Virus record (IMG/VR): IMGVR_UViG_3300025715_000009
Span: 256,001 to 320,000 of that record
Reading direction: 5' to 3' (one strand)
Source: a virus
Lineage: Duplodnaviria; Caudoviricetes
DNA length: 64,000 bases
Position 1 is the stretch's first letter; every line of letters starts with the position of its first letter. The notes beneath the pieces were generated by a model. That model saw only the letters and a program-made list of their open reading frames with translations. It made no database searches and was not told the DNA's origin. Both the position numbers and the translations under genes were made by a program. Below, piece after piece: positions 37,260-62,680 of this stretch.

Positions 37260-37264
37260 TAGTG

Positions 37265-37335
37265 TGCCCCATTTGGGAATCGAACCCAAGTAAATAGTTT
37301 TAGAGACTACCGCTTTACCATTAAGCAAATGGAGC
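37265..37335 (-). tRNA. tRNA-Sup (CTA), amber suppressor
   Basis: full cloverleaf; GTAGT-CT CTA AA-ACTAT. Confidence 0.85.
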
Positions 37336-42348: not shown

Positions 42349-43174
42349 GGGCTGAGACTATACCCTTCTCGCTATCACTTTCAAGCCCGTACCTTTGAGG
42401 TGCTACCCTCTCCGTTAAGCTCTTATCCACATCCTCATGGATGTCTGATAGCATGGCTGCCTTTTTTAGAGAGTGGCTTTTCTCTCGTCACAACAAGTTA
42501 ATCAACCTTCCGGTTACCGTCTACCTTGCGAGCAGTAAAGGACCGCTAAGTCCACCGTGCACCTTCCCATCAAACCCTTCCGCCTTGCGAGCTTCCAGGC
42601 TCCAGATTCTCTTTCGAGTCTGGACTTAAGCCATTTTCGCTTGTTGTCGGTCAAGACTTTTGCGTTTTCAATTGTTGGACTCGAACCAACGACCGATTGT
42701 ATTACAAGACAATTGCTCTACCATTGAGCAAAACTGAACGGGTTTCCCCTTGACCACGAGGTGCTTGACCAGTTGCTCCATATCCTTTTGAGATACGGAA
42801 TACAACACCTCGCATACATTTTACCTGCCGGCTACTTTGTGGTTTTTCAAGACCAGGTATTCCCCTGAATCTATCAAACTGCTATTAAGCACTTGTCTGC
42901 AAAGACTCGCACCTAATAACTACTGTTCTCTCTCATAGATAATCAGTTTTGCATGAAGATAATCCCTTGCGAGGAAAAGTTACTCTCACCCGGTTGGCCC
43001 TGAATAACTCTGTCTCTTCCTGATGTCTCTACAAATTCCGCTGGTAGCGAAATCATAGGAGAGTCAGCTTGCTTACATGAACTGTATTACTACAGCGGGA
43101 GGCGTCACCCTTTACCCCTTTATGATTATTGCTAATCACTATTCTTCGCCTTTCGGCAGGACCATAAGCAGCCC
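42349..43174 (-). ncRNA. GOLLD-like giant structured RNA (~826 nt)
   Basis: GC-richer region without credible ORF; 5' GGGCTG pairs with 3' CAGCCC; many GNRA hairpins; embedded tRNA; size and tRNA-cluster context fit GOLLD. Confidence 0.75.
42666..42738 (-). tRNA. tRNA embedded in GOLLD-like RNA, 8-nt anticodon loop (CU UGUA AU)
   Basis: TTCAGTT/AATTGAA acceptor; ATTGT-CTTGTAAT-ACAAT; GTTGG-TTCGAGT-CCAAC. Confidence 0.7.
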
Positions 43175-60577: not shown

Positions 60578-60650
60578 TGGCTCCCATGGGATTCGAACCC
60601 ATACTGTACACATTTTAAGTGTGCCGCCTCTGCCATTGGGCTACGGAGCC
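60578..60650 (-). tRNA. tRNA-Leu (TAA), short variable loop
   Basis: cloverleaf; CTTAAAA. Confidence 0.85.
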
Positions 60651-61370: not shown

Positions 61371-62015
61371 TTAAAAATCCCTTGTCTTCAGTTTAGTAAT
61401 AATCCTCTCCCCTTTCCTAGAAAAGAGGCTCACACTTGGGACTAGAACCAAACCTTCTGCTTTCGCATTTCCTATTGTAGACTTAAAACCTCCTTTTACC
61501 ATTTCAATTGCTTGACCTAATGTTCCTTTAAATAGAACAGGAACAGATTTGATACCTAATTTAGCGGCAATACCATCGACATCTTCTCGCTTTAACCACC
61601 AACCATCAATCCAGACATCAAACAAGATAAAGTCAACTCCATTAGGGATGTAATCCCCTCCACCTTTTTGAATCTTAGCTCCATAGCCTTCGCCATAGAG
61701 AGTTACATTTGTCATTCTATTTCCATCAAAATCACGTTCAATACCAGGAAAAGCTTCTTCCCAATTAATTTTGGAAACAATCTCTTCTAGTTTAGTCTGA
61801 AGGAAAGAAGGGATACTTGCATTATCTGACTTGCCTTTGATTTCTACTTTCTTGCCATCCCAAATGATGCGAATGTTTGTTCCATCAATTTTTTCTGTTC
61901 CAATCCATTCATTGTTGAATAGATAGGCAAATTCAGGTTGAGCAAAATCTCCAATGATGAAATCACCATTATCATCTCGTTTATACAGTCCATTAATTTT
62001 ATGATACTGTTTCAT
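61371..62015 (-). CDS. RNA ligase (Rnl2-like adenylation domain)
   Basis: EKIDGTNIR, YGEGYG, FDV, EGLVL, KLK. Confidence 0.9.
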   Translation of the reverse strand: MKQYHKINGLYKRDDNGDFIIGDFAQPEFAYLFNNEWIGTEKIDGTNIRIIWDGKKVEIKGKSDNASIPSFLQTKLEEIVSKINWEEAFPGIERDFDGNRMTNVTLYGEGYGAKIQKGGGDYIPNGVDFILFDVWIDGWWLKREDVDGIAAKLGIKSVPVLFKGTLGQAIEMVKGGFKSTIGNAKAEGLVLVPSVSLFSRKGERIITKLKTRDF

Positions 62016-62030
62016 TTACACCTCCAATTA

Positions 62031-62104
62031 TACCACCAACAGGATTTGAACCCGTATCACCTTGCTTCGAAGGCAAGTGTCTTAATCCATTAGACTATGG
62101 TGGC
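62031..62104 (-). tRNA. tRNA-Arg (TCG)
   Basis: cloverleaf. Confidence 0.9.
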
Positions 62105-62108
62105 AAGA

Positions 62109-62180
62109 TACCTCTACCAGGAATCGAACCCGGATACTCTGTTTAGAAGACAGAGGTCTTATCCATTAGACGATAGAGGC
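62109..62180 (-). tRNA. tRNA-Arg (TCT)
   Basis: cloverleaf. Confidence 0.92.
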
Positions 62181-62186
62181 ATGATA

Positions 62187-62258
62187 TGCTTCTGCCGGGA
62201 CTTGAACCCAGATTATAGGTTTCGTAGACCTATGTCCTATCCATTAGACGACAGAAAC
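62187..62258 (-). tRNA. tRNA-Arg (ACG)
   Basis: cloverleaf. Confidence 0.92.
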
Positions 62259-62260
62259 TC

Positions 62261-62333
62261 AGCTGCCACAAAGAATTGAACTTTGATTTAATCCTTACCA
62301 AGGATTTGTAATTATCCATTATACGATGGCAGC
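62261..62333 (-). tRNA. tRNA-Thr (GGT)
   Basis: cloverleaf. Confidence 0.9.
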
Positions 62334-62431
62334 ATTATCCTTCTCTAATGCCAATTAACCCTAAGAGCATTGGCTTTCTTTTTCAAAGTTCTTGTTGTCT
62401 TGGTCATTATATACTCAAGACTTTTATCTCT

Positions 62432-62467
62432 AAAACAAAAAAGGCATTCAGCCTAAGCCGAATGCCT
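62432..62467 (-). terminator. intrinsic terminator (candidate attenuator) upstream of the tRNA array
   Basis: AGGCATTCGGC-TTAG-GCTGAATGCCT-TTTTTGTTTT. Confidence 0.85.
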
Positions 62468-62491
62468 GATTAAAATCAAACCTTGAACGGC

Positions 62492-62584
62492 TTACAACAC
62501 TGGTATCCCTGTATCGACAGTTCTCCAATTATGATTGGCTACTGGGGATGAGGTACTAATTTGTTGTAAGCATAATTCTTTCAT
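62492..62584 (-). CDS. putative leader peptide MKELCLQQISTSSPVANHNWRTVDTGIPVL
   Basis: 30-codon ORF after an AAGATAA motif, ending 24 nt before the terminator; overlaps alternative hairpins. Confidence 0.6.
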   Translation of the reverse strand: MKELCLQQISTSSPVANHNWRTVDTGIPVL

Positions 62585-62680
62585 ATATTTTATCTTGCGT
62601 CCTTTTCTATAAATATGCATTTTTTTGTAAAAATTTTTATTTTTTTGTTATTTTTATATGATTATATTCTTCTGTTTTAC

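Follow-up and report, generated by a model that had tools for sequence, protein, structure and literature searches.

Paired small-ORF and terminator units at the heads of two phage tRNA clusters as candidate leader-peptide attenuators

The stretch of DNA considered here, referred to as the window, comprises the 64,000 nucleotides (nt) at bases 256001-320000 of a 388-kb IMG/VR record (IMGVR_UViG_3300025715_000009) of an uncultured sludge phage. The 388-kb genome contains 59 transfer RNA (tRNA) genes as called by ARAGORN, all on the same strand and arranged in two clusters. Cluster B (293-318 kb) specifies tRNAs for Thr, Arg, Asp, Pro, Val, Asn, Trp, Ile, Ala, Gln, Ser, Cys, His, Leu(cag), Gly and Met, together with an odd tRNA with the anticodon AAA, and lies downstream of a short open reading frame (ORF) and a terminator in the window, which we call leader B and, with their flanking elements, unit B. 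A paralogous copy, unit A with leader A, is found outside the window, on the minus strand of L118, at the head of cluster A (354-366 kb; Phe, Tyr, Lys, Met, Glu, Leu, Gly and Ile(tat)), which is likewise outside the window and upstream of cluster B. The two units may be translation-sensing leader-peptide attenuators of the trp type, acting on transcripts that arrive from upstream, a reading to which we give an even chance. All features of the leader unit in the window are on the minus strand, and these and their neighbours are as follows (bp, base pairs; aa, amino acids):

62607-62619 (-): candidate promoter element P1, a 13-nt motif TGCATAT.TATAG (TGCATATTTATAG here) at the 5' edge of the unit
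62590-62596 (-): AAGATAA, read from the sequence as a weak Shine-Dalgarno-like (SD) element, 5 nt 5' of the ATG
62492-62584 (-): leader ORF B, with its ATG at 62584, its TAA at 62494-62492 and 30 sense codons
62562-62571 (-): region 1, the 5' arm of a long-range helix (codons 5-8), which pairs with 62499-62490
62525-62538 (-): apical hairpin within the ORF, 5 bp and a 4-nt loop, identical in five sequences
62510-62524 (-): codons 21-25, R-T-V-D-T, a run of proximal-block amino acids (a post hoc observation)
62490-62499 (-): region 2, the 3' arm of the long-range helix, which holds the stop codon (62494-62492)
62464-62481 (-): linker hairpin predicted from partial-transcript folds, sharing the first 4 nt of the terminator stem
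62432-62467 (-): intrinsic terminator, an 11-bp stem with a 4-nt loop (stem-loop 62467-62442) and a T-run
62406-62434 (-): promoter P2, TTTAGA-17-TATAAT, a pattern match between the terminator and tRNA-Thr
62338-62374 (-): pre-tRNA 5' leader, a hairpin (62374-62369/62355-62350) and then TTAGAGAAGGA, which ends 4 nt 5' of tRNA-Thr
62030-62333 (-): proximal tRNA block, Thr(ggt), Arg(acg), Arg(tct) and Arg(tcg), from ARAGORN and Rfam
61371-62015 (-): RNA ligase gene within the array (Pfam PF09414, E = 1.8e-20)
62971-62681 (-): 96-aa gene between ThyX and the leader unit, followed by an A-rich spacer
63707-62952 (-): ThyX gene, the upstream neighbour of unit B

The original prediction described unit B as an attenuator gating the tRNA array, and the elements that it named are found where it placed them. 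These are the AAGATAA motif, the 30-codon ORF with 26 different codons and 18 amino acids, the 10-bp pairing 1:2 (62571-62562 with 62499-62490), the 7-bp pairing 2:3 (62494-62488 with 62460-62454) and the terminator. The gene order behind the unit is also as described (tRNA-Thr from 62333, Arg x3, RNA ligase, Asp, Pro, Val), the ligase being a PF09414 member, and a leader of about 70 nt separates P2 from tRNA-Thr. Since the last 7 nt of region 2 can pair with 62460-62454 instead of with region 1, the helices are mutually exclusive, and to this extent the claimed trp-type geometry stands.

Unit A, which has the same plan, consists of the following:

L118:3540-3760 (-), genome 365.54-365.76 kb: unit A, at the head of the Phe/Tyr/Lys/Met/Glu cluster
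L118:3688-3614 (-): leader ORF A, 24 codons, with AAGGA 7 nt before the ATG
L118:3590-3567 (-): terminator of unit A, 10 bp, followed by TTAGAGAAGGA and directly by tRNA-Phe

The order in unit A is a TTTAGA-17-TAAAAT promoter-like site, TGCATATATATAG, AAGGA, the ATG and ORF, the terminator, TTAGAGAAGGA and tRNA-Phe; no promoter-like site is seen between its terminator and tRNA-Phe. Its fold resembles that of unit B, in that the start of the ORF pairs with the end of the ORF and the stop codon, followed by the terminator (z = -4.4). The motif TGCATAT.TATAG occurs exactly twice in the 388 kb, once in each leader unit, and TTAGAGAAGGA also has exactly two copies in the genome, each directly before the first tRNA of a cluster. 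Of 39 hairpins on the coding strand that resemble terminators, only two have a tRNA within the next 400 nt, and these belong to units A and B. In both units the stop codon of the small ORF is 24 nt before the terminator stem. The leader peptides themselves have no similarity to each other. Unit A is the cleaner attenuator candidate: its SD is good, it has codons in tandem, its antiterminator is competitive, and no promoter bypasses its terminator.

The composition of each leader follows the tRNA content of the cluster behind it. In leader A there are 11 F/Y/K/E codons compared to four for amino acids unique to cluster B, and in leader B the numbers are two and 21 (Fisher P = 6.6e-5). Leader A, which was located as a prediction of the composition hypothesis, is spelled in F/K/Y/E/M/L/G/I, like cluster A, and its composition is more extreme than that of 99.9% of 24-residue windows of the phage's long ORFs and 99.2% of small spurious ORFs (P = 0.0007-0.008). 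Leader B covers all 16 cluster B amino acids in 30 codons, as do two of 3255 proteome windows, and the absence of K, E, F and Y from its codons 4-30 occurs in 0.5-1.5% of nulls. After the start codon, and by standard wobble rules, the tRNAs of its own cluster read 18 of the 23 codons of leader A and 22-24 of the 29 of leader B; those of the other cluster read 8-11 and five, respectively. Each leader also contains a run resembling the gene order behind it: F-K-K-Y-Y-F in leader A precedes tRNAs Phe, Tyr, Phe, Met, Lys and Lys, and R-T-V-D-T in leader B precedes Thr, Arg x3, Asp, Pro and Val (R-P-V-D-T in the relatives L109 and L110). In L109, 17 substitutions leave all 16 amino acids in place with no gain of F, Y, K or E, an outcome seen in 0.9% of random-substitution trials, a null that takes no account of position-dependent constraint on the RNA.

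The correspondence of leader codons with the tRNAs behind them, first proposed from leader B, has thus passed an independent test, in that cluster A has its own leader with a complementary amino-acid set. The details of the proposal need some revision. Codons 4-30 of leader B do specify 15 amino acids, all with tRNAs in the window, but the claim that they match exactly the window set overlooks the AAA-anticodon tRNA at 60578-60650 (called Phe by ARAGORN). Because this tRNA passes the Rfam tRNA model (54 bits), the statement that F is absent from both leader and tRNA set is not strictly true. That K, E, F and Y have no tRNA here holds for cluster B, apart from the AAA-anticodon tRNA, but not for the phage; as had been allowed for, tRNAs for K, E, F and Y, and more for Met, are present elsewhere, in cluster A, 36-47 kb upstream. 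The AAA-anticodon tRNA is one of three unusual tRNA calls in the window, the other two (at 37264-37335 and 42666-42738) being one of amber-suppressor type with the anticodon cta and one with an 8-nt anticodon loop.

Four relatives carry unit B and allow it to be compared: L104 and L105 are closer, L109 and L110 more distant (ThyX 72-73% identical). Measured from the TGCATAT block through the T-run, the unit is 93% identical in L104, 90% in L105 and 77% in L109/L110, and the same tRNA order follows the unit in the relatives. The ATG, frame and stop of ORF B are kept in all five sequences (the window, L104, L105, L109 and L110) despite two 3-nt indels, and AAGATAA is unchanged in all five. The TGCATAT block is kept in all relatives, while the sequence farther upstream is not. 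The 96-aa gene is broken by stops in L104 (6001-6290) and L105 (740-1040), and other genes take its place in L109/L110. A conserved ORF and terminator in relatives had been suggested as a check of the attenuator idea, and both are present, the frame being kept through in-frame indels and the terminator showing a compensatory change. A 42-codon version of the ORF, starting at an in-frame ATG at 62620, was rejected, since in L105, L109 and L110 either this ATG is missing or a stop comes after it.

Within ORF B, 20 residues of the peptide are invariant among relatives, and the amino-acid identity to L109 is 73%, the same as for ThyX. Synonymous changes are far fewer than in ThyX (1/27 vs 32.5% for L105; 4/20 vs 47% for L109), and the ratio of amino-acid to synonymous changes is accordingly far higher in ORF B. 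Low synonymous divergence is expected if RNA structure overlaps the reading frame, and the apical hairpin adds to it. As judged from these comparisons, ORF B is under nucleotide-level constraint atop a maintained frame, with little constraint on the peptide, which is what a regulatory ORF embedded in an RNA structure would look like, and not a typical protein gene. We infer that the leader ORF is translated.

Two other explanations bear on this conservation. If the ORF encoded a functional peptide of 30-31 residues, with the terminator ending its gene, the conserved frame, start and stop, the in-frame indels and the 20 invariant residues would all be accounted for. The two units share flanking RNA motifs and not peptide similarity, however, and the peptide has no homologues, a weak SD and an amino-acid/synonymous change ratio much above that of ThyX. 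We regard a functional peptide as hardly probable, the least so of the readings weighed here. Under the second explanation, the unit would be an independent, structured small RNA some 165 nt long, or the tail of the mRNA that comes from upstream; the ORF would be incidental, and the tRNAs would be driven only by P2 and other promoters. A promoter-like block, a structured domain (z = -3.3), an AU-rich linker and a strong terminator are the layout of a small RNA gene, and the nucleotide conservation is far above that of the neighbouring genes, synonymous sites included; the unit stays about 95% identical while the 96-aa neighbour decays to a pseudogene in relatives. The frequent radical amino-acid changes, the weak SD, the position of P2 directly behind and the lack of a peptide family fit as well. 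A small RNA would not, however, predict the complementary codon content, the two in-frame indels or the retained amino-acid set, and it leaves unexplained the identical 24-nt spacing and the promoterless terminator before tRNA-Phe; there is also no Rfam match. On balance we consider it unlikely.

Folding of the 201-nt region of unit B (z = -3.3) gives a long hairpin closed by the 10-bp 1:2 helix, followed by the terminator. The 1:2 helix is kept in all relatives apart from one C-to-U wobble change and one A.C break, and the apical hairpin is lengthened to 7 bp in L109/L110. The terminator (-18.2 kcal/mol) has the GC-rich hairpin and U-tract of a Rho-independent terminator, and also shows covariation: the relatives carry one compensatory U-A to C-G change, and one G.U is improved to A-U or G-C. 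The alternative pairing is best seen in partial-transcript folds, in which the RNA is folded before the 3' arm of the terminator emerges and with region 1 blocked as by a stalled ribosome. Under these conditions a 2:3 pairing nested around the linker hairpin sequesters most of the 5' arm and loop of the terminator (11 of 15 nt in B, 10 of 13 in A and 14 of 14 in L109). Without a ribosome, unit B forms 1:2, and just four of the 15 nt of the terminator arm are tied up. The energy gain of the nested structure, relative to dinucleotide shuffles, has P = 0.029 for B, 0.003 for A, 0.125 for L109, 0.07 for L105 and 0.02 for L104. For unit A, pairing of the final codons with the 5' arm and loop of the terminator is predicted at -14.0 kcal/mol, compared to -15.3 kcal/mol for the terminator itself (P ~0.01). 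The part of the trp-type claim that is weakened is the bare 2:3 pairing in unit B, which is at chance and becomes marginal (P ~0.03) only when nested. A covariance search with Rfam 15 matches only the four tRNAs, with nothing relevant on 62432-62640 up to E 10 (T-box included), and identification of the hairpin as a degenerate tRNA or T-box was rejected as being without Rfam support.

P2 belongs to a class of sites, TTTAGA-N16/17-TATAAT, with 32 copies on the coding strand and one on the other strand, where control spacings give two to four. Most copies are 10-25 nt before an SD and ATG, and several are directly behind a terminator. In L109/L110 both hexamers of P2 survive (TTTAGA-16-TATTAT) around a spacer that has diverged. 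The claim that the leader gates the array fails here: the conserved P2 stands between the terminator and tRNA-Thr, and at least four more members of the class are inside the array and split it; the original prediction had itself cautioned that internal promoters may limit control to the proximal block. Because P2 is downstream of the terminator, leader B could modulate expression and not gate it; because class promoters are inside both clusters, any control would reach the proximal block only and the array is not one operon. For the 5' edge of the unit, a sigma-70 reading of P1 (TTTACA and a downstream hexamer) was rejected because of its spacing, 14 nt here and 16 nt in L109/L110. The hexamer GCATAT within P1, often found as AAGCATATAT (window 62618-62613, 50895), is enriched outside long ORFs, where 42% of its copies fall although just 21.5% of the genome is of this kind. 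It is often in the spacer of a TTTAGA promoter, or precedes an SD by 15-30 nt, and may serve as an operator or as an element of a second promoter class common to both leaders.

The same arrangement could be a plain transcription-unit boundary, in which the ThyX operon stops at the terminator, the tRNA unit begins at P2, and it is by coincidence that an ORF, a helix and a composition match are present. A terminator followed by a TTTAGA-class promoter does recur in this genome (for example at 277180 and 332684), open frames as long as this are not rare (18% of random sequences contain one of 27 codons with the composition of ORF B), and the bare 2:3 pairing is at chance. What makes a simple boundary distinctly improbable, in our view, is that conservation extends far beyond what a terminator needs, that a paralogous unit with shared unique motifs is present at the other cluster head, and that the composition statistics are as described above.

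Evidence from RNA is limited to contigs. One sludge metatranscriptome contig of 1157 nt begins at 62539, crosses both the terminator and P2 and ends at 61383, at a depth about five times that of the ThyX contigs of the same run. This is a weak hint of read-through, since contigs show no ends and DNA carry-over is possible. In four metatranscriptomes, neither the 96-aa gene nor the leader's 5' half is covered by contigs, a gap that is not evidence. The contig that crosses the terminator can also be taken to indicate a cis-acting termination-resistance RNA similar to HK022 put or EAR, or a site resembling lambda PR'-tR' with a phage antiterminator, which would help polymerase to cross the terminator and the hairpins of the array. 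The promoter-like block, the conserved structured RNA, the terminator and the long array would suit such an element, as would the nucleotide-level constraint on synonymous sites. It lacks Rfam similarity and leaves the frame conservation and the composition match unexplained, and no antiterminator protein has been identified, none having been searched for; we consider it highly unlikely.

Attenuator-type leaders remain the best reading because of the duplicated, motif-delimited design, the kept frames with unconserved peptides, the equal spacing between stop and terminator, and the complementary codons. The switch itself, and any response to tRNA depletion, we infer. With fast decoding, a ribosome at the stop codon would cover region 2, and the terminator would form; with no ribosome, helix 1:2 would form, and again the terminator. 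A ribosome stalled within the ORF would leave region 2 free, and region 2 with the linker hairpin would tie up the top of the 5' arm of the terminator, so that transcription would continue into the tRNA block. At unit B, P2 would give basal transcription, to which the leader would add demand-dependent transcription. A further step, which we put forward tentatively and with well under an even chance, is a block-by-block, demand-driven supply of tRNAs, in which two complementary leaders (one rich in F/K/Y/E, and one for the other 16 amino acids) test the decoding of their own block's codons. In such a circuit, slow decoding, for example after cleavage or depletion of host tRNAs, would lead to read-through into that block. 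The proposal that host anticodon nucleases are the trigger, and that the ligase serves in repair, is speculation.

A number of observations weigh against attenuation. The SD of ORF B is weak (AAGA) compared to the GAGG/GGAGG before ThyX, the 96-aa gene and the RNA ligase; amino-acid changes are as common as in ThyX, and some are radical; the changes show weak codon-position bias (6:4:7 over the three positions); and a profile search of 1.84 billion proteins finds no peptide family, the sole match being the window's own 42-aa call. The comparison of unit B covers three lineages only, and the inner stems of the long hairpin are lost in L109. Shuffled sequences do as well as the bare 2:3 duplex of unit B (-8.8 to -10.3 kcal/mol; P ~0.3). 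In full-length equilibrium folds, the terminator has a probability of at least 0.96 at every simulated stall in the window and L105, and never less than 0.79 in L109. We do not count these folds as decisive, because attenuation is kinetic and because in the trp attenuator, too, the terminator exceeds the antiterminator in stability. With P2 where it is, the tRNAs behind unit B do not depend on read-through, and such dependence is to be expected only at unit A, where no promoter-like site intervenes. Additional TTTAGA-class sites are present in cluster B (window 56586-56559, 55142-55115 and 46130-46103; genome 299245), with others in cluster A, and in L110 the P2-like promoter is separated from the tRNAs by two protein genes. 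The codon match also has gaps: the TTA (two), TTG, ATA and GCC codons of leader B are not read by cluster B tRNAs (TTA unless the AAA-anticodon tRNA does so), leader A holds T, D and R codons foreign to cluster A, and cluster B contains the AAA-anticodon tRNA, yet leader B has no Phe codon. Finally, most amino acids of leader B occur only one to three times, and it should therefore make a poor sensor.

By analogy, the closest known systems would be the enterobacterial leader-peptide attenuators (trpL, pheL, hisL, thrL and ilv), especially the multivalent thr and ilv leaders. Like the units described here, these have a short leader ORF with codons tied to downstream supply, and in the trp type the stop codon is in a segment that can pair upstream (1:2) or with the 5' arm of the terminator (2:3), with the terminator behind. 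The tandem regulatory codons of pheL and thrL are comparable to F-K-K-Y-Y-F of unit A. The differences are that tRNA genes, rather than biosynthetic enzymes, are downstream here, so that decoding capacity and not amino-acid supply would be sensed; that leader B is spread over 16 amino acids, mostly with one to three codons each; and that unit B has a promoter behind its terminator and a weak, nested antiterminator, with no sequence or Rfam relationship to the known leaders. The present units are, moreover, predicted from sequence. Because dependence on read-through is lacking at unit B, and because the switch is putative, we describe the units as working like an attenuator and not as established members of the class.

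Two other systems resemble the units in part. T-box riboswitches are also leaders that link terminator read-through to the state of a tRNA, but, unlike the units here, they bind uncharged tRNA directly, without an ORF, and control genes for aminoacyl-tRNA synthetases or amino-acid supply. In the lambda-type PR'-tR' arrangement, as described for a Stx phage, a short terminated '6S' transcript is extended through Q antitermination (PMC7547250). This arrangement and unit B share a promoter (a candidate one in unit B), a strong terminator some 165-190 nt on and a position at the head of a long operon, with a short RNA as the default product; in PR'-tR', however, read-through is set by a protein that binds DNA and RNA polymerase, and there is no leader ORF, whereas here the frame and codon content point to the ribosome.

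The reasons for which phages have large sets of tRNAs, and the ways in which they deploy them, are debated, with codon compensation and the replacement of tRNAs destroyed by host nucleases among the proposals; tRNA clusters have been discussed as a counter-defence against tRNA-targeting nucleases (PMC10264068). The phage described here likewise has a large tRNA set adjoining an RNA ligase gene, and tRNAs of the Lys, Glu and Tyr type, which are typical nuclease targets, are in the cluster headed by the F/K/Y/E leader. T4, with PrrC, Pnk and Rnl1, is the comparison case for tRNA nuclease versus repair. Studies of counter-defence treat the tRNAs and the repair enzymes, and not leader-regulated transcription, and a literature search turned up no paper in which a leader peptide controls the tRNA genes of a phage. 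If the attenuator reading is correct, a leader that mirrors its tRNA block would be a built-in sensor of decoding capacity, phage tRNA expression would be regulated on demand, and leader-peptide attenuation would have been applied to tRNA genes. The genome provides a natural control, with two complementary leaders before two complementary tRNA clusters. If the attenuator idea is wrong, the units would still be an RNA element that is both conserved and duplicated, and that is specific to the places where the phage's tRNA clusters begin.

The sampling of relatives was as follows. Eight near-identical contigs (L096-L103) have 0 differences from the window unit and are therefore uninformative. A blastn search of the region against the phage collection gave no match; pattern scans of viral contigs and a first scan of metagenome contigs gave nothing, and a second metagenome scan gave one record that duplicates L110. 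The unit is not present at the loci of ThyX relatives with 65-76% identity (L106-L108, L111 and L113-L117), and the loci found through RNA-ligase relatives in viral contigs have no tRNAs. Unrelated tRNA arrays in the retrieved loci have no similar unit, though the heads of those arrays may lie outside the loci. Among phage records, the best RNA-ligase match is less than 50% identical, so that no cultured relative is close enough to compare. For unit A, the only copy found (L119) is identical, and no statement on its conservation is therefore possible.

Several smaller features of the region and its relatives were also seen. At the site of the hairpin before tRNA-Thr, L110 has a hairpin of different sequence (L110:3405-3462), followed by a motif of the TTAGAGAAGGA type; with conserved motifs on either side, a hairpin in this position probably belongs to the pre-tRNA 5' leader or serves as a processing signal. 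A second small ORF in the window (62345-62407 (-); 20 codons, beginning M-T-K-T-T-R-T) has an ATG that overlaps the -10 element of P2 and a stop inside TTAGAGAAGGA, just 5' of the tRNA-Thr and tRNA-Arg genes. It is probably not coding, because the frame is shifted near its end in L104. L110 contains a tRNA-Leu(taa) (L110:4425-4500) that would read the TTA and TTG codons of the leader; cluster B has only Leu(cag). The ThyX gene of L104 (L104:3933-6020) contains an intein that includes an HNH nuclease domain (Pfam order Thy1, Intein_splicing, HNH, Thy1), which the ThyX gene of the window does not have.

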